Shown here piece after piece: positions 5,825-27,591 of a DNA stretch of 27,591 bases (positions are counted from its first letter, which is position 1; every line of letters starts with the position of its first letter). This DNA comes from a virus (taxonomy: Duplodnaviria; Heunggongvirae; Uroviricota; Caudoviricetes). The position numbers were made by a program, and so were the translations under genes. Where the stretch lies: the IMG/VR virus record IMGVR_UViG_2645727640_000023. One strand, given 5' to 3'. The notes under the pieces are model-generated. The model was given only the letters and a program-made list of their open reading frames with translations. It did not search any database and was not told where the DNA came from.

Positions 5825-7897
5825 TTACCAGCCTGTAATGTAGTTATCGCCCGCGTAAATATTCAGCCCCATACCGTCCTCGGTGACGCGGGAACTGGTC
5901 AGACGTAACCCCTCGGCAAGTTCGACGCGCAGCGAGGCTTCCGCATTCACTTTTTGTTCCTGCGGTTCCTTATCCGGGGCCGTCCATTTCTGATACAGGT
6001 CGGTTACAAAACCGCCCAGATACTCCCCGGCGACACTGCCCAGCGTGGCACCGGCAACCGTACCCAGCGGTCCGGCAAGGCTGCCAACGGCACCGCCGAG
6101 CCATGCACCGGCTGTACTGCCAATTGCGCCTGCTTTTTCATGGGTTGACGCCTGCTCATCCATCAGGACGGGGGCAAGCTGGAGTGCCCCCATTACCGGG
6201 CCACCCAGACGTGACAACGCACGACCGGCACCTTTCCCCATCCAGCCCAGCGCCCCGGCACCTTTTGTCACAACCCGACCGATCGCACTGCCTGCAAGTT
6301 TGTTTCCGATACCGGAAAACCACCCGCCAACAGCACGCCCGGCATCAGCCAGCTTTCCGACCGTTCCCGTAACCAGTTGCCCGGCAGCACTGCCTGCAAG
6401 CCTGCTCAGAAGACCGGATTTACCGGGTAAAGGTAATGGTGCAGGCCGTGCTGTTACCGGTACGCCGGGTGGCGGTAATGCCAGTACAGGGCGTGGTGCA
6501 GGTAATGCCAGCGGCTGTGGCCCGGACAGCAATAACGGCTGGCGGGGTAACAGCGGGGCCATTCTTCCGCCGCTCCGTCCGCGACGACCGCCGCCACTCC
6601 CGTAGCCACCAAATCCACGGGGCCAGTTGATGACAAACACACGCTGAATGCCGATACCCTGCAACAGCGTCTCAGACGTCATGGCATCCGGGACCGGCAG
6701 ACCTGCCTGCCCACGTTTGCGGTTTCGCATCCAGCGCCACATACGACGCCCGGTTTTAAACGGATAACTGGCAACCTGCCATGAGGGTTTTGCCACGGCC
6801 CAGCCTGCTCTCAGGGCTTTATTGGCAAGCCAGACAGACACCAGAACAGCAGCCAGTTTTTTCAGGCTGACAATATTCTGGTCAACCCATGCCAGCGCAT
6901 CTTTACCCGGTTTCAGCCAGCGCCATAATTCCTGCGCCGCGATTTTTACCGTTCTGAACGTGGTCAGAAATTTCTGACCAATGTTTTCTGCCAGTGCGTC
7001 AAGTTCCCCGGATTTATCCGCCATGTCGTGCCAGTTAAGCACCCGGCGCATCTCGTTCTTGATTTCTTCAAAGGGGCCGCTGTTTGCCACCTTTATGCGA
7101 AATTCAAGCAGGTTAGCTTCCATCTGGGCGAACATCCCGTCCCAGGAGTTCATCGCACTGGCCTGTGCACCTTTTGACTGTTCTGACAGCGTTCTGAATA
7201 CCGTCAGAATGGATTTCAGACCCAGCTTGCCTTTTTCACCTTGTTTGCGGATATCCTTAACGTCTTTACCCAGTGCATCCGCCAGCGTCTGGTAAACGTT
7301 AATACCGTAACCGGTCAGCAGGTTGGCATCCGCCGCCGTGATTTGCTGGCGGGCAAACATCTGTTTCAGTTGCAGTGAGGCACCCTGTGCAGTGGGTAAA
7401 TCCCAGCCGTGCATGGCCCCCTGATCCTGCAACATGGTGATGAACTGTTTCGTCTGTTCATCCGTCATGCCGAAGCCTTTCGACGAACGGATCTCATCCA
7501 GAACACCACTCAGCCCCCACGTGGTGTCCTTCGCGTTCTGCTTTGCCCAGGCCATCATGGCCTGCGCTCTGACCTTATCGCCGTGATACAGCAAGTTCAT
7601 GGCGATAATTTGCTGCTCACGCTGGGCGGCTGCACCAATAAACAGTTTATTGGCGGTGTAACCCACACCAGCGATACCCAGCGCCCCGGCTGACAGCATT
7701 CGGAATGTACGGGTTGACAGTGAACCCATTCTGTCAATGGCACCAGAAACGCGCACAACCTCCATACGCAGGGCACGAAGGGAACTTTGTCCGCTACGGG
7801 ACAGGGCGTTTATCTGGTTCGAATACTGGCGGGAACGCCGGGAAAGATTGCCATTAAGATCAATAATGACAGACGCCTTTAAGCGTTTCCCGGTCAT
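5825..7897 (-). CDS. Y: Tail tape measure protein (Mu gp42-like)
   Basis: ORF track 690 aa; long helical N-terminal half, then a Pro-rich segment (residues ~447-492) and Gly-rich GxxxG-type repeats (~493-630); AGGAAA Shine-Dalgarno 8 nt upstream of ATG 7897. Confidence 0.85.
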
Positions 7898-8851: not shown

Positions 8852-10339
8852 TTACAGAATGAACTGAACTTGTGCCGCGAAAATGCGGAACTGGTTAATC
8901 AGATTCGGGCCGCAAAGCACATCAAGACGGTCTTTGTCGTCCTTGTTACGTGCCACATACAGCTCCTCTTTGAACGTGTCGAAATCCTCGACCAGTCCGG
9001 CGTTTTCCCATTCTTCAAACAGTGCCAGCAGCTCCGTTTTGATCACGGATGGCGTCACCACGGCCTGACCGGTGGCAAAGCGGGTGCCATCACTTGCCAG
9101 CTTGTAGTTCGGGAATTTCTGCGTGATGCGGGTTCGCAGTGAATAACGCAGATAACTCAGCGTGGCGATGGTATTCACGTTCAGATAAGACGGATCACTG
9201 TCACCGTACTTGTTTGTGCGGTACATCGTGATCATGCGTTCAATCTGCATTTCACCACCATCATTCACGTTAAACGTGGAGATGCCGTCAAACAGCAGCG
9301 CATTACGTTCTGACCAGGTGAAACGATCCCCCACCGCAGGCGGCATTCTTCCGGGCAACGTCAGCGTCTGGAGAGGACGCGCCGGGTCGATGGAAAGCGC
9401 CTGGCTGGCAACGGCACACAGTGTGGCGGCGTACAGATATGACGGTTCCGGTGCACCGGCAATCCCCATACAGGAGATCAGATGATCATTACGACTGACA
9501 CCAAACGTGGAAATATCCCCACACGTGCCGGACAGCACTGTCACAGCAAAGCCATCAGCCTGATTGACCGGTCCCCAGCGTTCCTGCAATTCAGTGCGTA
9601 ACAGATTCAGGTTCGGTTCATCGGTATAGGGCATCACAATATATTTGTATTGCAGATCGCCCATTCCCGCGATACTTGCGCTGATATCCGGGTTGCCATT
9701 TTTACCGGAGGCGGCTTTGAATGCCGTGATAATCCCGTAAGGGGTGGTTTCACCCGCGTAATAGTTCCAGCGCACATCCACGGCAGATAATGCACCCGTA
9801 AATTTTGCACTCAGAACCACATCTGCATGGGTGTCATCATCTCCGCTGTCTGCGCGAACTTCTGCCGTCACCGGTAAATCCGGCTGGCCTTTGATTCGGG
9901 CAACCAGCAGGTCAGCCAGCGCAGCCCCTTTTGTACCTGCTGCGACGGATACCGCCAGTCGCTGACCGGCAATATAGGTCACAAGCGAGCCGTTTTCGCC
10001 TGCCGTTCCTGACAGTGAGATTTCACCGACAGCAGCATTACCGGTGCCGTTTCCCTGCGGGATACACCACAGCTCCGCCACGCGGTTAGCGTTCAGGAAT
10101 GCATCTGCCATCAGTGCCAGCATGGAACCCTGACCAAACGCCGCACTGGCCTGTGAGCCGGAACGGATACGGACAGGCACGTTCGGTGCGGCACTGGCTT
10201 TACTTCCGCTTTGCCCGAACATCAGCACGCGCTGGCGGGGAGCCGGTGTTCCGCTGACGGCATTGCTGTTATCAAATTCGATATACGTCAGAGGAACGCG
10301 AACATCTGACGGGATCGCGTTAAATGAAATATCGCTCAT
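8852..10339 (-). CDS. L: Contractile tail sheath protein
   Basis: ORF track 495 aa ([27 protein letters not shown]...); sheath-sized, followed by the tube gene. Confidence 0.9.
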
Positions 10340-19727: not shown

Positions 19728-20014
19728 GCACGGGGACGAGGACGCTTGACACCGGCAACGCGGGCACGACCTTCTGCCACATCCTGACCTCGGGAGGTCA
19801 GCGTTACGACATAAAAGCCGCGCAGGTTTTCCACGGTGACCAGTTGCTGCTCTGCCAGCCAGTCAATCTGGCCGCGAACCACATCGCGGGAAACGTTGTG
19901 TCCGTATGCATCCAGACAGTCCTGAAGAATGGATTCGTTTGCTTCGTTATTGCAGTCCATCAGGGAACGCAGGATGACCAGACGACGGTCTTCGGTCAGA
20001 ATATCGTTAATCAT
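19724..20014 (-). CDS. Hypothetical protein (Mu gp26-like)
   Basis: ORF track 96 aa; ATGA junction with the upstream gene at 20011-20014. Confidence 0.65.
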   Translation of the reverse strand: MINDILTEDRRLVILRSLMDCNNEANESILQDCLDAYGHNVSRDVVRGQIDWLAEQQLVTVENLRGFYVVTLTSRGQDVAEGRARVAGVKRPRPRA

Positions 20015-20310
20015 GAATTACTCCGGTTTACTGCGTTTTCAAGCAGCAGCTCCAGTTGATGGGAAAATGACTGCACCCGCTGGGACAGCACCCGGATATC
20101 GCCGGACAGCTCTGCAATTCGCAGGCGCATTTCGTGTACATCTTCTGTGCCAGGGATGCTGGCGTAGCGGGTTTCCATTTCGGTCATCCGGTTTTCAAGA
20201 CGCTCCACACGCTCAGTGCTGGCAAAACTACGACGCATTGCCCAGACGGCCCCACCGGCCACAACAGGCAACAGGTAAGGCCATAACGCTAAAACTGAAA
20301 TCAAATCCAT
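20011..20310 (-). CDS. Small membrane protein in the lysis region (Mu gp25-like)
   Basis: ORF track 105 aa is called from GTG 20328; in-frame ATG at 20310 (MDLISVLALWPYLLPVVAGGAVWAM...) abuts the upstream TAA (TAATG), giving 99 aa with one N-terminal transmembrane segment and a coiled-coil tail. Confidence 0.7.
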   Translation of the reverse strand: MDLISVLALWPYLLPVVAGGAVWAMRRSFASTERVERLENRMTEMETRYASIPGTEDVHEMRLRIAELSGDIRVLSQRVQSFSHQLELLLENAVNRSNS

Positions 20311-20504
20311 TATTCTGCTCCACGGCACCAGTGGCAGTAGTTCGCCATCGGCTGCTGTCTCAGCACATCAGGCCGCAGCTCACGACCGCAACCGGCACAC
20401 AATACAGGCGGGTCATACGCCGCCGGGCGGGGAATATCACGGGTATCCCCCTGCCAGAGTTCAGCGAGCAGCAGCGCCACCGCCCGGTTCTGGTCTTCGT
20501 TCAT
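20310..20504 (-). CDS. Small zinc-ribbon protein (Mu gp24-like)
   Basis: ORF track 64 aa with C-x2-C ... C-x2-C (CAGCGRE...CHWC); AAGGAAAG Shine-Dalgarno upstream of ATG 20504. Confidence 0.7.
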   Translation of the reverse strand: MNEDQNRAVALLLAELWQGDTRDIPRPAAYDPPVLCAGCGRELRPDVLRQQPMANYCHWCRGAE

Positions 20505-20802
20505 AAATTTCTTTCCTTCGGGTCTCCTGTTCCCGGACTGATGCCTTGTCGCGGTTGCACTGCCCGAGCGCCATCAACAGGTCAGCATTCCAGAGAAGGG
20601 ATGCTCCCCACGTCAGGGGCTGTGGCATGGGCGGAACGGGCGTTGCTTCCGTCAGTTCTGCATCAGTTTCGGGCAGGATCACCACCGATGGCACGGGTGC
20701 GTTTTTCGAGTTCCCGCAACCTGTCAGCAGCAACGGCAGGCACAGGACGAGTGCTGCAATTGTCACCGGTAATGGCGGTTGTAATTTTTTGTTTTGCATC
20801 AT
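20461..20802 (-). CDS. Outer-membrane spanin (o-spanin lipoprotein) candidate, overlapping the i-spanin gene in another frame
   Basis: Internal ATG of ORF 20461-21009 at 20802 gives MMQNKKLQPPLPVTIAALVLCLPLLLTGCGNSKN...: signal peptide plus lipobox LLTGC, Pro-rich mature part, C-terminal Cys. The true 3' end is uncertain because the frame reads on into gp24. Confidence 0.6.
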   Translation of the reverse strand: MMQNKKLQPPLPVTIAALVLCLPLLLTGCGNSKNAPVPSVVILPETDAELTEATPVPPMPQPLTWGASLLWNADLLMALGQCNRDKASVREQETRRKEIYERRPEPGGGAAAR

Positions 20803-21049
20803 GATGTTCTGTCTCGTCTGCCAGCCGCGCGGCACGATTTGCGGCACGGATAGTGGAAAATACCTGCATCGTCTGTTCCTGACCGTGTAACAACCATTCA
20901 GCCGTGTTGCGGGCCTGTTGCTCCGTCTGTAATTCACGGCGCAGCGTCTGGTTATCGTGGCGGGTGCTGTCCAGCCTGTGCCACAACACCCCGGACAGAA
21001 CGGCGGCAAACACGGCTGCCAGCAGTAAACTTTTACTGGCGAAGGTCAT
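20663..21049 (-). CDS. Inner-membrane spanin (i-spanin, Rz-like) candidate
   Basis: ORF track 128 aa: N-terminal transmembrane segment (LLLAAVFAAVLSGVLW) followed by a charged coiled-coil region; immediately downstream of the endolysin gene. Confidence 0.7.
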   Translation of the reverse strand: MTFASKSLLLAAVFAAVLSGVLWHRLDSTRHDNQTLRRELQTEQQARNTAEWLLHGQEQTMQVFSTIRAANRAARLADETEHHDAKQKITTAITGDNCSTRPVPAVAADRLRELEKRTRAIGGDPARN

Positions 21050-21551
21050 CCGCCCCCCTGATATTCCAGATAGCCATTTCCACTTCGCGACGGTTCATCA
21101 GTCCTTTCCATTTATGGCCTGCGGCAAACACCCAGCGGGCCATCTGGTCACGCGCTCCGGCGTAATCACCGGCATTGAGTTTTTTCAGCAGCGTTGATTT
21201 ACTGAATGCGGTAACACCGGTGTTGAAAATAAACGTTGCCAGCGCCGTTTTCTGATATGGCGTCAGCGGCACCCTGACAAGACGATCGATTGCCGCATAA
21301 ACCGGTTTTAAATCACCGTCGAGAAGAGCCATACACTCCGCATGGCTGTAACGGCGCATTTCGATATCCGGCCCGGTATGTCCCACACAGACCGTAAGCA
21401 CACCGGCAATATCGCGGTAAGGCATATAAGCGATATTTTCCAGATGGATCAGAGACTGACGGGTCATTTCCTGATAACCACCCACACCGCCACCGGCAAT
21501 CGTTGCCGCCAGCAGTGCGGCTTTCAGTTTTTTGGGTATCCCCGCCATCAT
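21033..21551 (-). CDS. lys: Endolysin, lysozyme-like with N-terminal signal-anchor-release-type hydrophobic segment
   Basis: ORF track 172 aa (MMAGIPKKLKAALLAATIAGGGVGGYQEMTRQS...), the first gene after the C gene as in Mu. Confidence 0.85.
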   Translation of the reverse strand: MMAGIPKKLKAALLAATIAGGGVGGYQEMTRQSLIHLENIAYMPYRDIAGVLTVCVGHTGPDIEMRRYSHAECMALLDGDLKPVYAAIDRLVRVPLTPYQKTALATFIFNTGVTAFSKSTLLKKLNAGDYAGARDQMARWVFAAGHKWKGLMNRREVEMAIWNIRGADDLRQ

Positions 21552-21620
21552 GCTTCCCTGAAAAAATGCTCTGATGGCAGTCTAAAAAATCAGATGGCAG
21601 GTGCGGGATTATGGTGACAG
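21552..21620 (-). promoter_or_regulatory. Candidate C-dependent late promoter for lys (P_lys)
   Basis: Minus strand CCATAATCCCGCACC (plus 21593-21616), about 55 nt upstream of the lys ATG, shares CATAA(C/T)CCC and CCCGCACC with the region upstream of gene I. Confidence 0.5.
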
Positions 21621-21645
21621 GAAATAACCGGCAGGATGCCGGTTA
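21621..21645 (-). terminator. Hairpin terminator directly after the C gene
   Basis: Minus strand CCGGCA-TCC-TGCCGG followed by TTATTTCC; the plus strand also has a T-rich tail (TTATTTCT), so it could act in both directions. Confidence 0.5.
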
Positions 21646-22065
21646 TTTCTGGCTTTCAGGTGAGAACAGATCAGGCTGATGACGTCGTGTATGCAGCTTT
21701 CTCTGGCGGGCAATAATCTGGTAGATCTGCGGCTGGGACAGGCGATACTGGCGACGCAGTTCTTCCATGTTACGACCATTGAACTGGCAGTAAAGCAAAT
21801 CGTCGCGTAACGCGGTCAGGATCGTATCGCCGCAGGGGATGTAAAACTGCCGCCCGCCCAGAAAACAGGACAGGGCAACGGCCTGTTTACGGGCAAGCTC
21901 ACGGGGATTGCTGACGTTCTGGCGTTTCAGTTCGTTTTCCAGAACATCAATCAGATCAACCACCGAACGGGGCCAGCGTGATTCCAGTTCCGGGGCCGGG
22001 ATGTTATCAATATGTCCGATTAACTGGCGAATTGCCGGATCGTGTTCAAATAAATCATGCTGCAT
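21643..22065 (-). CDS. C: Late transcription activator C (Mor/C family)
   Basis: ORF track 140 aa with C-terminal helix-turn-helix; resembles the Mor ORF in this window (shared ...GG.QFYIP.G... / ...GGQVYIPRGQ... and ...FNGRN..EL...Y motifs); GGGGGAAAAT upstream of ATG; hairpin terminator right after the stop. Confidence 0.85.
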   Translation of the reverse strand: MQHDLFEHDPAIRQLIGHIDNIPAPELESRWPRSVVDLIDVLENELKRQNVSNPRELARKQAVALSCFLGGRQFYIPCGDTILTALRDDLLYCQFNGRNMEELRRQYRLSQPQIYQIIARQRKLHTRRHQPDLFSPESQK

Positions 22066-22077
22066 ATTTTCCCCCGG

Positions 22078-22197
22078 TTAACAGACAGAAAGATACACCA
22101 CGGCACTGATGGTTATCAGAACCACAAGGGCAATCACTTTTATCGCACTCATCAGCGTGGACGGCCCGAAACATTCATCACTGAATTTTCTGTACAT
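22078..22197 (-). CDS. 39-aa tail-anchored membrane peptide (holin-like accessory candidate)
   Basis: Not in the ORF track (under 60 aa). My translation: MYRKFSDECFGPSTLMSAIKVIALVVLITISAVVYLSVC; AAGGGG 6 nt upstream of ATG 22197; fills the gap between the membrane protein gene and C. Confidence 0.45.
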   Translation of the reverse strand: MYRKFSDECFGPSTLMSAIKVIALVVLITISAVVYLSVC

Positions 22198-22206
22198 GGT
22201 GCCCCT

Positions 22207-22569
22207 TTACCCGAACAGACGAGCGCGAAAACGAAAGGAGAGCCAGAACGTCAGCAATCCGGCCAGCGCCCAGATGACATGCTCAGGACCCGTTTTCAGT
22301 TGAGACGTTGCCATCACGGCTAATCCCAGCCCGGACAGACTCCCCAGCCAGGTCAGAGGCCAGACGAACCGGGCAAAATGTTCAGGCACCCGGCAGCTCA
22401 TTATCAGCGCATCCAGACAATCAGCGGCAACACATAAAGCAACACTGAAAACCGAGGCACAGCAAAACATCAGCGCGCGCCAGCCACAAAACAGACTTAT
22501 CCACAATAACAGCGCCAGTAATACCACCGATAAAAAATCAGGCCACTGACGAGCAGAACGCTCAGACAT
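22207..22569 (-). CDS. Multi-pass small membrane protein (holin/lysis-regulator candidate)
   Basis: ORF track 137 aa; preferred ATG at 22569 (MSERSARQWPDF...) has GGGAGA 7 nt upstream; at least three hydrophobic segments. Confidence 0.65.
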   Translation of the reverse strand: MSERSARQWPDFLSVVLLALLLWISLFCGWRALMFCCASVFSVALCVAADCLDALIMSCRVPEHFARFVWPLTWLGSLSGLGLAVMATSQLKTGPEHVIWALAGLLTFWLSFRFRARLFG

Positions 22570-22780
22570 AATGTTTCTCCCTGTAAAGCAGGCAATGATG
22601 AAGAATTTCCGGCATATCAACTGACTGCCAGCCTTTCATGTAATAACTGCCGTGGGTGCCATCATGACCGGTATAGTCGCGGGGCGCAGGCCGTGGCCCA
22701 CCGGCGACACGGTGCAAAACCTCCTGACGCAGCCGCTCACGTCTGCCAAGATGAAAGGATGCATTCCAGCCTTTACCCAT
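22562..22780 (-). CDS. Possible first ORF of the middle operon (72 aa), doubtful
   Basis: ORF track 72 aa in the mor-C interval; begins only about 50 nt after the terminator palindrome, so it may be promoter/leader sequence rather than a gene. Confidence 0.25.
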   Translation of the reverse strand: MGKGWNASFHLGRRERLRQEVLHRVAGGPRPAPRDYTGHDGTHGSYYMKGWQSVDMPEILHHCLLYREKHYV

Positions 22781-22857
22781 GATGATTTCCCCCGGTACGG
22801 TTATTCATCACAGGATATTGAGGACGTAAAAAAAGCCGGATTAACCGGCTTTACTGT
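22781..22857 (-). promoter_or_regulatory. Expected location of the Mor-dependent middle promoter Pm
   Basis: In Mu, Mor activates Pm upstream of C. This is the only sizeable noncoding stretch between mor and C, and the C-distal hairpin at 21628-21642 would end a transcript of about 1.2 kb. The -10 element is not clearly assignable. Confidence 0.4.
22825..22855 (-). terminator. Intrinsic terminator palindrome immediately downstream of mor (early-transcript terminator); may double as an activator-binding dyad for the middle promoter
   Basis: Minus strand reads AAAGCCGG-TTAAT-CCGGCTTT followed by TTTTTTT-ACG; an 8-bp perfect stem with a U-tract, beginning 3 nt after the mor stop. Confidence 0.6.
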
Positions 22858-23247
22858 TTACAGAAGTGAGGGCTGGTACTGGCGGTATTTCAGCCGTCGC
22901 ATCCGGCGAATGGCCTTGTAAACCGTATTGAAAGTGACACCATAACGGGTGGTCAGTTCGCTGACGTTGCGACCGTTAAAATCATTCCAGATACGCAAAT
23001 CCCGAATCAGCGAGTCCAGAACCTGACCGCGTGGAATGTAGACCTGACCGCCGCCCAGATGCTTACAGATAGCCACAACAATCTCCAGTGAATGGGCAGG
23101 ATCAACACCCAGCCGGGACAATTCCCCGCGCAGTAAATCGTTCAGCTCCGCCAGCAGTGCCGGAAAGCGTGACGTATCCTCTGCGGGATTGTCAAGATGT
23201 GCCAGGATGGTGTCATCCTGCAAATCACCAAATAAATCTTCCGTCAT
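22858..23247 (-). CDS. mor: Middle operon regulator Mor (Mor/C family transcription activator)
   Basis: ORF track 129 aa (MTEDLFGDLQDDTILAHLDNPAEDTSRF...GGGQVYIPRGQVLDSLIRDLRIWNDFNGRNVSELTTRYGV...); paralogous to the C ORF; ATGA junction with gemA; strong terminator palindrome directly downstream. Confidence 0.9.
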   Translation of the reverse strand: MTEDLFGDLQDDTILAHLDNPAEDTSRFPALLAELNDLLRGELSRLGVDPAHSLEIVVAICKHLGGGQVYIPRGQVLDSLIRDLRIWNDFNGRNVSELTTRYGVTFNTVYKAIRRMRRLKYRQYQPSLL

Positions 23248-23795
23248 TGTGCCATCCTCCGTGTCTTTCTGGCATGGGCATAAGCCGCCGTCATGGCATC
23301 ATAGCCGCGCAGTTCACGCCCGGACGGACTGACTGGCAACGGAAGCCCGTGACGGGAAAAGGCTTCACGAATACAGCGGATATGCCACTGCTTGAGAGTT
23401 TCGAGAACAATCAACAGGGTGTCGCCATGACACCACGCCAGCGTGGAAACACCCTGTCCGCCATTACGTTTCGCCGTCAGGCGCTGAACATATTTATCCA
23501 GCGCCACATCACCGCCATCGGTAATAAAACCGTCTTCTGCCATCTGCTGCCAGACTTTGTATACCTTCTCGCGGGGCGTGACATGCCCCTTAAAGCGGCG
23601 ACGTGGATGTTTATTCAGCTTCTTAAAGCCGCGTTCTTTCATGGCATCGAGCACCTGTTCCAGTTGCGTAACCGTCAGCTCGCGGCAACTGATTTTGCCC
23701 GTTTTCTGCATCAGAAAAGCTCGGTAAGTGTCGTCGTCGAGTTGTAGCTCCCGACGGGCGACATGGATTAATTTAATCAGGGATGTGCGATTCAT
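23244..23795 (-). CDS. gemA: GemA-like early protein (Mu gp16 family)
   Basis: ORF track 183 aa (MNRTSLIKLIHVARRELQLDDDTYRAFLMQKTGKISCRELT...); immediately upstream of mor as in Mu. Confidence 0.85.
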   Translation of the reverse strand: MNRTSLIKLIHVARRELQLDDDTYRAFLMQKTGKISCRELTVTQLEQVLDAMKERGFKKLNKHPRRRFKGHVTPREKVYKVWQQMAEDGFITDGGDVALDKYVQRLTAKRNGGQGVSTLAWCHGDTLLIVLETLKQWHIRCIREAFSRHGLPLPVSPSGRELRGYDAMTAAYAHARKTRRMAQ

Positions 23796-23813
23796 GATCG
23801 TACCTCCGGAAAG

Positions 23814-23835
23814 AGGCGGTGCTGCAACACCGCCT
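23814..23835 (-). other. Hairpin in the gap between the opposite-strand ORF and gemA
   Basis: AGGCGGTG-CTGCAA-CACCGCCT (8-bp stem), 18 nt upstream of the gemA start codon and 29 nt upstream of the plus-strand ORF start. Confidence 0.3.
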
Positions 23836-23864
23836 GAATTTACACATCAATCAGAGAGGATTTT

Positions 23865-24131
23865 ATGGAAAATAATGTACAACCTTATGATGTTGCAGGT
23901 TATGCGATTGCATCAGCACTGGTGCGCCTTCTGGTGAAGAAGGCGATCATCACCGCAGAAGAGGGCCAGGCCATTTTCAGCTCTTCAGCAGAGATTTTAA
24001 AAGATGCGCCTGCAATAAGAACAAGCCGCCGCGAAAACATGCAACTGTCAAAGATCATGGAAGACATTATCAGTTCGTTAGACCCAGATGCTGACGGATC
24101 TCAAAAGCCTCAAACACATGAGCGTCAGTAA
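23865..24131 (+). CDS. Opposite-strand hypothetical protein (88 aa)
   Basis: ORF track 88 aa; GAGAGGA 5 nt upstream of ATG 23865; G-initial codon bias typical of real genes; occupies an otherwise empty 274-nt minus-strand gap; 3' end overlaps the 3' end of the convergent 100-aa gene by 62 nt. Confidence 0.45.
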   Translation: MENNVQPYDVAGYAIASALVRLLVKKAIITAEEGQAIFSSSAEILKDAPAIRTSRRENMQLSKIMEDIISSLDPDADGSQKPQTHERQ

Positions 24132-24372
24132 CAATATCCTGGTCTGATAACCCCAGCCTGCGGCGGATGTACTCCTCGCGGGCTGTTTCATTTTGCAGTG
24201 CCACTACTGTTTCCAGACGATTCATTTCGCGGTTGATAATGTCACGGACTTCTCTGGCGGTGAGATTATGCTTAATACCATATTCAACGATAGCGCGAAC
24301 ACGTTCCAGCATCCCTTTTTCAGCCATGACGTTATCAATATTAAGGGGAGTAAATTTATCTTCATTGTTCAT
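24070..24372 (-). CDS. Hypothetical early protein (100 aa)
   Basis: ORF track; ATGA junction with the upstream gene at 24369-24372; predicted helical, no motif I recognise. Confidence 0.65.
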   Translation of the reverse strand: MNNEDKFTPLNIDNVMAEKGMLERVRAIVEYGIKHNLTAREVRDIINREMNRLETVVALQNETAREEYIRRRLGLSDQDIVTDAHVFEAFEIRQHLGLTN

Positions 24373-24692
24373 TTTGCGGCCCTCAGAATAAATTCAGGAT
24401 AAAATTTCAGACTCATTTGCCGTAACACATCCAGTGCAGCAACGGCTGCTGATTTATCGTTGCCATCAGCAATAGCGCGGAGATTTTCAATAATCCAGTG
24501 AGGACTCAGTGACTCAGCAATAATGCCAAACCGGTACGCCATGACCTCATCAATAGCTTTTTCATGAGACGTCTCATATACAAAATTCACAAAGTCATGC
24601 ACTTCTTTTTTCGGCAAACCACCGGCAATCAGCAGGGCGGCAAGCTCTTCTGATTTTGAAAATACACCATTATTCATATCACTCACCTTCAC
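24369..24692 (-). CDS. Hypothetical early protein (107 aa)
   Basis: ORF track; overlaps the upstream zinc-ribbon gene by 14 nt. Confidence 0.65.
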   Translation of the reverse strand: MKVSDMNNGVFSKSEELAALLIAGGLPKKEVHDFVNFVYETSHEKAIDEVMAYRFGIIAESLSPHWIIENLRAIADGNDKSAAVAALDVLRQMSLKFYPEFILRAAK

Positions 24693-24861
24693 AATTCATG
24701 CACGCCGTGTCATCGCCCATATCACAGTGGTTGCATTTCTGCCCGCCACAATGAGGGCACTCTTTCAGATATTCAGGGGATTCATTACCGCAGGTCGGGC
24801 ATTCCTGTTTCACCGTGGTAAATTTCCCCAGCCACGAATACGATGTTTCACTGTTTTCCAT
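24679..24861 (-). CDS. Eight-cysteine zinc-ribbon protein (60 aa)
   Basis: ORF track: four CxxC pairs (CPTCG...CPHCGGQKCNHC...CMNCEGE); overlaps both neighbours by 14 nt. Confidence 0.65.
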   Translation of the reverse strand: MENSETSYSWLGKFTTVKQECPTCGNESPEYLKECPHCGGQKCNHCDMGDDTACMNCEGE

Positions 24862-25378
24862 TAGTTACCTCCGCCTGTTTTTGCGCCCGGATAAATTCGT
24901 CAGAAAGGATTTCAGTCATGCGGCCTTGCGCGGGTGTCATCCCCGTCATGACGTAAATCACATCACCAACACGGAACCACTGGAGCGGCCCGAATATTGT
25001 TGCGCTGAAATCCAGTCCCAGTGCGGGTAAAAGAGCGTCTGTGCGGGCGTAAGTGACCGGAATATTCTCCTGCCATATTTTCGCCAGCTCTCTTGCCTGC
25101 CCCCTGAGATGAGCAGGTATCCGCGAAGTTCTGGGCCTGCAACTGTTACCTGATGCGGGCCGTTGTACGGTCCACAGCTCCCGCGAGAAGGGGCGCTCAT
25201 TCCCCGGAAAATTCACACCATGAAAATGACGCCCACCAATACCTGTACTGAATACTGACCGGCAACCACAGTCCAGAACCTTATCAAGATGGCGGGCTTC
25301 TTCGCGTAGTTTCAGGCAGTCCGCCATAAACTGGTCCCATGCCAGCAGTGCTGTGGGATTTGACGTTTTAAAAAACAT
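24848..25378 (-). CDS. Hypothetical early protein (about 176 aa)
   Basis: ORF track 189 aa from 25417; I prefer ATG 25378 (MFFKTSNPTALLAWDQF...), which forms an ATGA junction with the upstream gene's stop. Confidence 0.65.
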   Translation of the reverse strand: MFFKTSNPTALLAWDQFMADCLKLREEARHLDKVLDCGCRSVFSTGIGGRHFHGVNFPGNERPFSRELWTVQRPASGNSCRPRTSRIPAHLRGQARELAKIWQENIPVTYARTDALLPALGLDFSATIFGPLQWFRVGDVIYVMTGMTPAQGRMTEILSDEFIRAQKQAEVTNGKQ

Positions 25379-25908
25379 CACGCCACCTCCTGCACCGCTG
25401 CGGGAGCCGGAGAACAATCAAGAATGAGATAACGCAGTACATGGTCGGTGATATTCCAGGCGCTGGAACTGCAAATAAAACGCCCCAGCCGGATATCGAT
25501 ATAAGCCATCACAAAACGGGGCATTCCCTGTTCGCACATTCTGTTGTCCACTTCTGCAACGATGTGAACGGATTCACAGGTCAGCACGCCTGTTGCAAAT
25601 TCTTTTGCCAGTGCCGGAATGGCATTGCCTTCCAGCCAGGGCAATGGGCGGCGGAAGGAACACCACGCGGCATCATCAACAGCAGACTGCTCAGTTGCGT
25701 TTCGTCTTACAGGCTGCTCTGTACGGGGACGCGGTACGTCGTAAAAACCATTAAGTTCAGTCAGCATTCCGGCATCAACCGCATCACGCAGGAAGTACAC
25801 CATTGCGGAGGATGGCATCTGCATTTTTTCAGCCAGAACCCCGCAGGTCAGGCGTCCGTAAGCCCGTAATAATGTGCTGACACCATTCAGAATTTTTGCA
25901 TCAACCAT
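25378..25908 (-). CDS. Hypothetical early protein with N-terminal winged-helix-like segment (176 aa)
   Basis: ORF track; GAGGAA Shine-Dalgarno upstream of ATG 25908; first gene after gam. Confidence 0.65.
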   Translation of the reverse strand: MVDAKILNGVSTLLRAYGRLTCGVLAEKMQMPSSAMVYFLRDAVDAGMLTELNGFYDVPRPRTEQPVRRNATEQSAVDDAAWCSFRRPLPWLEGNAIPALAKEFATGVLTCESVHIVAEVDNRMCEQGMPRFVMAYIDIRLGRFICSSSAWNITDHVLRYLILDCSPAPAAVQEVA

Positions 25909-26006
25909 GTTTTATTCCTCAGTAATCTGTTTCAGGCGCGAGCAATCCCCTGACGCATCGCGCCATAATTAAAAGAATGTGAATTAATTAAATATTAATG
26001 GTGGTA

Positions 26007-26531
26007 TTAAATACCTGCTTCCTGTTCAAACGGAATAATGGAAAAATCTTCAATTCCCGATTTAACCGTAATTCCGGCAACACCTGCGACGGCTTTTGGT
26101 TCCAGTAAAATCGCCTCCTTGTTGATTTCCTGCTTCGTGCGAATAAAGCGTTGCAGGCCAAGACGCTCCAGCGTTTCCATTACGGCATCCACGCCGCGAA
26201 TACTCACTGATGGCGGGCGTTGACGCCATGACACATCGCCGGTGACAAGATTTGCCGTCTTCACTTTGCCGCCGTTCGTCAGTTCGTCGCGGTTCGCTTC
26301 ACACCATCCCTGAACGCCTTTTGAAAGGGTTTCAATATCGGTTTTAATCGGTGCAATCCGGGCCGCAAATTTCTCCGTAATTTCCGCGATGGCATCATTC
26401 ATTTCCGTTTCCAGACGTGATGCTTCGCGCTGTAAATCCCCGATGCGTTTAATATCGGTAATCACCGCATCGCGGTTTTGTGGCACATAAGCCGCTGCGG
26501 CACTTTTGATGCGTTTTGCTGGTTTAGCCAT
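26007..26531 (-). CDS. gam: Host-nuclease inhibitor Gam (DNA-end-binding, Ku-like)
   Basis: ORF track 174 aa (MAKPAKRIKSAAAAYVPQNRDAVITDIKRIGDLQREASRLETEMNDAIAEITEKF...), which I recognise as essentially the phage Mu Gam sequence. Confidence 0.92.
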   Translation of the reverse strand: MAKPAKRIKSAAAAYVPQNRDAVITDIKRIGDLQREASRLETEMNDAIAEITEKFAARIAPIKTDIETLSKGVQGWCEANRDELTNGGKVKTANLVTGDVSWRQRPPSVSIRGVDAVMETLERLGLQRFIRTKQEINKEAILLEPKAVAGVAGITVKSGIEDFSIIPFEQEAGI

Positions 26532-26550
26532 AAATTAAAGCTCCTGTTAA

Positions 26551-26850
26551 TTAATATCCGCTGTATACAATGCTGGATACAGCACGATTGCTTAATTCCA
26601 TCTTTCGGGCAATGACATGAATATCCAGCCCTTCTTTATAAAGTTCACGACACAAATATTTGTCGTGCTCACTGATTCGGTATATACACAATGATATTCC
26701 GTGCCTTCTGGCATGTGCCCGGAGGGCGGTTGTGGCGACTTTCAGTTTTTCCGCCATTTCTTCAACGGTCATTTTCCCGACGTTGGCTTCGATAAATTCC
26801 CGGTCTTCGCGTGACCAGCGCTTACGATTACACTTCATGTCAGCCACCAT
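26551..26850 (-). CDS. Early protein with two tandem helix-turn-helix-like repeats
   Basis: ORF track 99 aa; repeat 1 RWSREDREFIEANVGKMTVEEMAEKLKVATTALRAHARRHGISL, repeat 2 YRISEHDKYLCRELYKEGLDIHVIARKMELSNRAVSSIVYS. Alternative start at ATG 26838. Confidence 0.6.
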   Translation of the reverse strand: MVADMKCNRKRWSREDREFIEANVGKMTVEEMAEKLKVATTALRAHARRHGISLCIYRISEHDKYLCRELYKEGLDIHVIARKMELSNRAVSSIVYSGY

Positions 26851-27270
26851 TCAGTACAACAGAGGCTCGCGCAGTGATGCCGGAATATGCCGCAGCGATA
26901 ACTGAACTGCTTTCAGGGCAAGCGAGGAATAACAGCAGCGCGCCCAGCCTTTTGCCATTAACCGGTAATCGCGCCAGATACGCTGCCACATATCACGGGC
27001 TTTCGGGTCTGATACACAGATGTATTCACGGTCCATGACGTACTCCCATAAATCCACGTTAAACGCATCGCCAGACGCAATGGCGCGGGATATGCTTTCG
27101 CCACAATAACGCGCACAGATGCTGTAATGGTCGAAAGTAATTAGGTAAGTCTTTTCACCATAACCATCAACTTTCCGGGCGCAAATAAACTCGCGTAATT
27201 CACCACCGTTGTTATTGCGTTCCTGAATTCGGATTAATGCCTGAATTTCATTTCGGATTTTGACGTTCAT
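26851..27270 (-). CDS. Hypothetical early protein (about 139 aa)
   Basis: ORF track 147 aa from 27294; I prefer ATG 27270 (MNVKIRNEIQ...) with AAGGAA 9 nt upstream. Confidence 0.6.
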   Translation of the reverse strand: MNVKIRNEIQALIRIQERNNNGGELREFICARKVDGYGEKTYLITFDHYSICARYCGESISRAIASGDAFNVDLWEYVMDREYICVSDPKARDMWQRIWRDYRLMAKGWARCCYSSLALKAVQLSLRHIPASLREPLLY

Positions 27271-27284
27271 TGTCAGCGTTCCTT

Positions 27285-27491
27285 TCAGTGGCATGTTTTT
27301 TCAACAGCCATTTCAGTGACACGGCCACCGGTGATGACACCATCGTTTTTCAAAATCTCAATAGCTTCATGGGCTGACTCATTAATTACTTTCTGGCTTT
27401 TATTAAGCACCAGTAACGCCACCATGCCAGCAAGTGTACCCTCATCACCGTCCAGTTCCGCACTACCGTCCACCGCAATGCTGGTGCGCAA
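27285..27491 (-). CDS. Hypothetical small early protein (68 aa or shorter)
   Basis: ORF track begins at a TTG (27491) with GGACGG upstream; in-frame ATG further in (MVALLVLNKSQ...) is an alternative start. Confidence 0.5.
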   Translation of the reverse strand: MRTSIAVDGSAELDGDEGTLAGMVALLVLNKSQKVINESAHEAIEILKNDGVITGGRVTEMAVEKTCH

Positions 27492-27539
27492 ATTCCGTCC
27501 TTTAATTCCAGATACTGTATTTTTGGTAATGACTCCAAC

Positions 27540-27591
27540 TTATTGATAGTGTTTTATGTTCAGATAATGCCCGATGACTTTGTCATGCAGC
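27540..27591 (-). CDS. 3' end (last 16 codons) of an early gene that begins beyond the window end
   Basis: Minus-strand frame open from the window edge to TAA at 27540-27542 (...LHDKVIGHYLNIKHYQ*); too short to name. Confidence 0.3.
   Translation of the reverse strand, partial: LHDKVIGHYLNIKHYQ

Follow-up and report, generated by a model that had tools for sequence, protein, structure and literature searches.

A predicted early terminator lies within the Mor-activated middle promoter of a Mu/D108-type phage, on a symmetry offset from the Mor dyad

The short stretch that follows the phage gene mor raises the question of whether a single palindrome can serve there both as the terminator of the early transcript and as the DNA dyad bound by the activator Mor at the middle promoter. 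Such a dual-use element had been proposed in a preliminary description of the virus record IMGVR_UViG_2645727640_000023, in which a strong terminator-like palindrome was seen where the middle promoter and its activator site were expected. We analyzed this DNA as a whole (27,591 nucleotides, hereafter the window; unsigned positions are those of the window, and signed positions count from the transcription start, +1, of the middle promoter Pm). With high confidence, we read the locus as the Mu/D108 mor-gp18 junction, at which an early terminator is embedded in Pm while Mor acts on an offset dyad.

In sequence comparisons, the 901 bp around the hairpin showed 99.6% identity with phage D108 and 99.2% with phage Mu. 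Judged from such comparisons, the window is a phage Mu/D108-type genome and appears slightly nearer to D108 than to Mu overall. The minus strand of the window corresponds to the rightward strand of Mu, and a window coordinate and its Mu coordinate add up to 32028. Over positions 22760-22880, every base equals that of Mu except for one G/A difference at Pm +12, where the window has G in agreement with D108 and Mu has A; the identity with Mu is unbroken from at least -76 to +11. The genes that frame the junction are as follows.

22858..23247, minus strand: mor, 129 aa (open reading frame list; Pfam PF08765 Mor, E = 4e-33; 99-100% identical to Mu and D108 Mor)
22860-22858, minus strand: mor stop codon TAA, Pm -56 to -54
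22562..22780, minus strand: gp18/E18, 72 aa, first gene of the middle operon, ATG at Pm +25 (open reading frame list; Mu and D108 records)
21643..22065, minus strand: C, 140 aa, late-gene activator and last middle-operon gene under Pm (Pfam PF08765, Mor family, E = 9e-34; Mu and D108 annotation)

The open reading frame upstream of mor is GemA, and mor is the last gene of the Mu early operon (Mu record AF083977 and literature). Past mor, the gene order is gp18, gp19, gp20 and then C. The interval had been described earlier as lying between mor and C, with a 72-aa open reading frame at 22780. That reading frame is present, but it is gp18/E18 of Mu, and C lies ~740 bp beyond the mor-gp18 interval, from which it is separated by gp18, gp19 and gp20. 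On the plus strand, an antisense open reading frame of 89 aa (22652-22921) spans the Pm/terminator region; the 1991 record M64097 lists it as the 'putative E-97' CDS, a feature no longer present in later Mu annotations.

On the minus strand, the sequence at the end of mor reads ...CTG TAA ACAGT AAAGCCGG TTAAT CCGGCTTT TTTT ACG, in which AAAGCCGG-TTAAT-CCGGCTTT forms a perfect 8-bp stem (22852-22832) with the following parts.

22845..22852, minus strand: hairpin 5' arm AAAGCCGG, Pm -48 to -41
22840..22844, minus strand: hairpin loop TTAAT, Pm -40 to -36, which is also the right half-site of Mor
22832..22839, minus strand: hairpin 3' arm CCGGCTTT, Pm -35 to -28, sitting where a -35 hexamer is missing
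22828..22834, minus strand: run of seven T, the predicted terminator U-tract, Pm -30 to -24, with the first three T in the stem and four T beyond it

A repeat finder returned the two 8-nt arms as 100% complementary across a 5-nt gap, with G-C at 5 of the 8 pairs, and this was the only strong palindrome that it found in the mor-gp18 interval. Among terminator-like sites in 20000-27591, the hairpin ranked first in a consensus scan. The 31-mer containing it folds as RNA at -12.2 kcal/mol (z = -4.1; 1 of 200 shuffles as good), and the 61-mer at -14 kcal/mol (z = -3.8; 0 of 200). We also scanned the whole window (27.6 kb, both strands) for perfect stems of at least 8 bp with at least three G/C pairs and at least five T in the next 8 nt, and obtained only two distinct sites, the post-mor hairpin and a second one at 6960-6979 on the plus strand. 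Dinucleotide shuffles of the window gave a mean of 0.18 sites, and 11% of them contained any such site. The post-mor hairpin is non-random by these statistics. The other site, TGGTCAGA-AATT-TCTGACCA followed by ATGTTTTC, lies on the strand that opposes Mu rightward transcription.

The hairpin has the features of an intrinsic terminator, namely a G/C-rich stem-loop with a U-tract directly 3' of it, on the coding strand of mor and at the end of the early unit. In the Mu record AF083977, a terminator predicted by TransTermHP is placed at 9179-9200, equivalent to window 22849-22828, and the D108 record GQ357916 has a rho-independent terminator at the corresponding position. The earlier proposal of a terminator palindrome with a seven-U tract after mor is thus borne out by the perfect 8-bp stem, the T7 run, folding z-scores of about -4 and the Mu/D108 annotation; the distance from the mor stop codon to the stem, which had been given as 3 nt, is 5 nt (ACAGT). 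A search of Rfam returned just a sub-threshold match to sroD (20 bits versus a gathering score of 50, E = 0.12), which most probably reflects the resemblance of the hairpin to a terminator.

The same DNA carries the middle promoter. AF083977 annotates a 'middle promoter, activated by Mor, PMID 8602357' at 9163-9233, which overlaps the terminator at 9179-9200. To place Pm at single-base resolution in the window, we used the wild-type bases at -57 to -52 (G T A A A C) from Table 3 of Ma & Howe 2015 (PMC4390567) and, from Table 1 of the same paper, the bottom-strand primer MLK7, which covers +10 to -9 and has the Pm-specific part GTACGGTTATTCATCACAG, together with primers JM1/JM6, which cover Pm -87 to -48. 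MLK7, JM1/JM6 and GTAAAC all match the window, and since the MLK7 primer and the wild-type bases at -57 to -52 match only with one start, +1 is at 22804. This assignment was checked independently against the KMnO4-reactive bottom-strand T residues reported at -12, -4, -1, +1, +3 and +4 by Mo & Howe 2014 (PMC4287176); all six positions are top-strand A in the window. The promoter elements then fall as follows.

22804, minus strand: Pm start +1, an A, equal to Mu 9224 (published primers and wild-type base table)
22812..22817, minus strand: -10 hexamer TATCCT, Pm -13 to -8 (placed from +1 = 22804)
22840..22855, minus strand: published Mor-dimer element AGTAA-AGCCGG-TTAAT, Pm -51 to -36 (literature description placed with +1 = 22804)
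22856..22861, minus strand: proximal UP-element subsite GTAAAC, contacted by the RNAP alpha-CTD, Pm -57 to -52 (Table 3 of PMC4390567), with the mor stop codon inside it

According to the literature, Pm has a -10 hexamer but neither an extended -10 nor a -35 hexamer, and it requires Mor. In the window, the -35 region reads CCGGCT and the -10 hexamer has no TGn in front of it; a sigma-70 consensus scan detected no promoter at Pm. Over the mapped Pm fragment, -62 to +10, the window is identical to Mu, and it is on this identical Mu sequence that Mor binding and Mor-dependent initiation have been demonstrated in the literature. While the sequence identity to Mu Pm and the coordinate mapping are direct observations, the Mor footprint, the dyad, the +1 position and alpha-CTD binding are taken from the literature. 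The hairpin occupies -48 to -28 and the T-run -30 to -24, both wholly upstream of +1. The expectation that the middle promoter would be found in the interval after mor therefore holds, in that the hairpin lies within the Mor-activated Pm, upstream of its start. At Pm -57 (window 22861, minus strand), the base is G in the window, Mu and D108 and T in an SE11-type lineage; a G>T change at -57 doubled Pm activity in one published study.

Whether the hairpin is also the Mor operator depends on where Mor binds. The published Mor site is a 16-bp element from -51 to -36, centred at -43.5, that consists of 5-bp inverted repeats and a G/C-rich 6-bp spacer (PMC4390567, PMC4287176), and the Mor DNase I footprint in the literature extends from -56 to -36 or -33. 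The pattern AGTAA, AGCCGG, TTAAT has its sole exact match in the window at 22855-22840. Its arms are complementary at 4 of 5 positions, and a dyad of this kind (5-bp arms, 4/5 complementary) is by itself not statistically separable from chance; the assignment of the Mor site rests on published footprinting and mutagenesis, not on our computation. A further site on the minus strand at 20017-20032, AGTAAACCGGAGTAAT, has one mismatch to the 16-bp pattern and a similar G/C spacer; the frequency of one-mismatch matches is at chance level, in that 16% of shuffles give at least two.

The two symmetries do not coincide. The hairpin axis lies at -38, the central A of TTAAT, and the Mor axis lies at -43.5, 5.5 bp away. 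Of the 16 bp of the Mor site, 13 fall within the 5' arm and loop of the hairpin, and the G/C-rich spacer of Mor is supplied by GCCGG, the core of the 5' arm; the 3' arm (-35 to -28) lies outside the Mor dyad (-51 to -36), in the -35/spacer region. Jiang & Howe 2008 (PMC2582627) reported that activation also depends critically on the 'immediately adjacent downstream bases', and the hairpin 3' arm lies among these bases.

An alternative reading is that the palindrome AAAGCCGG/CCGGCTTT is itself the dyad bound by the Mor dimer, so that one element would act as both RNA stem and operator. It draws on the hairpin being the sole strong palindrome in the interval, on its roughly suitable placement upstream of the -10 hexamer, and on the DNase I footprint (-56 to -33/-36), which covers most of it. 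However, we rejected the hairpin as a Mor operator since its axis, arm length and spacer are unlike those of the Mor site: the hairpin is centred at -38, with arms of 8 bp and an A/T loop of 5 nt, and the Mor site is centred at -43.5, with arms of 5 bp and a G/C spacer of 6 bp. The 3' arm also falls beyond the published element, so that this reading is contradicted by the published mapping, and we consider it very improbable. From the different axes and the different arm and spacer geometry, we conclude that the hairpin and the Mor dyad are two different symmetries. The idea of a dual-use element is correct insofar as terminator and Mor site overlap physically, over 13 bp, and fails insofar as they were taken to be the same palindrome.

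The overlap of the terminator with the Mor-dependent promoter is already known, and AF083977 annotates the two as overlapping features; our main result is thus a clarification, that this is a textbook Mu Pm region in which two different symmetries share one DNA. The distinction matters for mutants designed to keep the RNA pairing and change the DNA dyad, because the G/C arms of the hairpin are the Mor spacer and the -35/spacer region rather than half-sites, while one half-site of Mor coincides with the hairpin loop. The case also illustrates that a reading from sequence alone tends to choose the strongest palindrome as the operator, where the true operator is a weak dyad beside it.

We then considered conservation among Mu-type relatives collected from IMG/VR, from GenBank phages and from 44 of 5426 complete E. 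coli genomes. None of the Mu-type relatives found differs at any position of Pm -56 to -21. In a lineage typified by E. coli SE11 and loci L018-L025, identity across mor DNA is 81-90%, with 18-23 differences in the final 60 nt of the gene. Pm -56 to -6 carries just two differences there, -20 T>C and -10 C>T, and the second of these turns the -10 hexamer into TATTCT. Past about -5, the SE11 lineage continues with unrelated sequence into a GH108 glycoside hydrolase gene in place of gp18. The -56 to -6 promoter/terminator block would accordingly represent a conserved island as well as a mosaic joint, a pattern that fits strong constraint.

Several relatives show further variation at this joint. 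In loci L018-L025 and L063-L065 (equivalent to window 22810-22860, minus strand), the GH108 module replaces gp18-gp20, with C still ~1 kb downstream. Locus L003 joins a window-type mor to the other, GH108-type downstream module, a combination that places a recombination breakpoint inside the conserved block. In L023 (1888-1975; the same as L055, IMGVR_UViG_2531839192_000008), the hairpin/T-tract block is partially duplicated in tandem after mor (...GCCGGTTAATCCGGGAATCCGGCTTTTTTTACGCCCTCAATGCCGGTTAATCCGGCTTTTTTTACG...); the terminator/Mor-site region is either genuinely duplicated there or misassembled. A scan of species-representative genomes with the Pm -27 to -7 motif gave four matches with unrelated flanks, which we regard as chance matches.

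The hairpin is identical in all Mu-type relatives, with zero stem substitutions. As there is no stem substitution, there is no covariation, and RNA and DNA constraint are inseparable by conservation. This bears on a second alternative, that the palindrome serves a DNA-level promoter function alone and is not a working terminator, early transcription being stopped elsewhere or by Rho. The literature puts all of -56 to -21 under promoter-related constraint (UP subsite, Mor site and adjacent downstream bases), and conservation across this segment therefore does not require an RNA role; moreover, the terminators in the Mu and D108 records are predictions (TransTermHP in AF083977 and an annotation line in D108). 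Against this, a perfect 8-bp G/C-cored stem followed by U7, 5 nt past the last early stop codon and on the transcribed strand, is the canonical form of an intrinsic terminator, and just two such sites occur in 27.6 kb. Furthermore, without a stop at this point C would be an early product, against the known Mor dependence of C expression. A terminator of the early transcript has reportedly also been placed at about 9.2 kb by the Howe laboratory. On balance, we regard a palindrome with a promoter function alone as highly unlikely, and favor the reading in which an early terminator is embedded in Pm.

In the mechanism that we propose on this reading, the early transcript from Pe would pass through mor and end at the intrinsic terminator, formed by the 8-bp G/C-cored hairpin and U7. 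The predicted stop lies in the U-tract at about -27 to -24, which puts the expected early 3' end ~25 nt upstream of the Pm start. Pm would act as a sigma-70 promoter that fires only with a Mor dimer on the imperfect dyad AGTAA-N6-TTAAT at -51 to -36, with the RNAP alpha-CTD binding directly upstream of Mor, at -61 to -52, a stretch that includes the mor stop codon. Middle transcription from 22804 would then read gp18, gp19, gp20 and C. Since the terminator is upstream of +1, early transcripts would be blocked from C and the hairpin would be absent from the middle transcript; starting past the hairpin, the middle transcript should not be stopped by it.

The same ~25 bp would in this way be used twice, once in RNA through the pairing of GCCGG with CCGGC around the axis at -38, and once in DNA through the Mor dyad AGTAA/TTAAT around the axis at -43.5. 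Each part of the hairpin would have a second role, the 5' arm as the Mor spacer, the loop as the right half-site of Mor, and the 3' arm with the T-tract as the -35/spacer region. That termination and activation are mechanically coupled, beyond mere compaction, seems unlikely to us. If there were such coupling, Mor at -51 to -36 might act on the elongating early complex as the hairpin forms and alter the termination efficiency; by another route, repeated passage and release of early RNAP at -27 to -24 might strip Mor and RNAP from Pm or rearrange them there, and so contribute to the timing of middle transcription.

The embedding was not seen among distant Mor homologues. No hairpin was found directly after mor in Klebsiella phage Kp4866-3 (63% identity), Vibrio phage martha, Shewanella phage MuM16-2 or Pseudoalteromonas phage HS6, and the Mor dyad pattern had no match in Kp4866-3. 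Two Vibrio Mu-like loci (L029:1858-1960 and L027:1858-1950) have a hairpin with a 14-bp stem of about -20 kcal/mol that lies ~40 nt past the mor homologue and is preceded by an A-run. The absence of the arrangement in distant homologues suggests that the embedding is specific to the Mu lineage rather than a family trait. In other Mu-like phages, the next gene starts within a few bases of the mor stop codon, without a hairpin.

Compared with known systems, the closest match is Pm of phage Mu with its overlapping early terminator, which has the same mor upstream and gp18 downstream, the same Mor element, UP subsite and -10 hexamer, and the same start. The element itself does not differ from that of Mu, and the one different base is at +12 (G for A). 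The C-activated late promoters of Mu, Plys, PI, PP and Pmom, resemble Pm in that they have a -10 hexamer but no -35 hexamer, and in that a dimer of the Mor/C family binds an imperfect 16-bp dyad centred at -43.5 (PMC2582627). In contrast to this shared architecture, the literature reports no cross-activation between C and Mor.

The C-Plys junction offers a second comparison. A 12-bp hairpin, AAATAACCGGCA-TCC-TGCCGGTTATTT, lies there on the minus strand at 21622-21648, starting in the last codons of C and including its stop codon. It folds at -20 kcal/mol (z = -5.8), and its U-tract is interrupted (UUAUUU). The two features that AF083977 annotates at this junction overlap by 4 bp. With the Plys start placed approximately, the 3' end of the Plys hairpin abuts the upstream edge of the C-dependent promoter/activator site, whereas the Pm hairpin is embedded instead. 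Compact junctions in phages and operons can likewise place an intrinsic terminator over the promoter that follows, with one short intergenic stretch ending one unit and starting the next. Compared with such junctions in general, the overlap at Pm extends into the activator-binding site itself.
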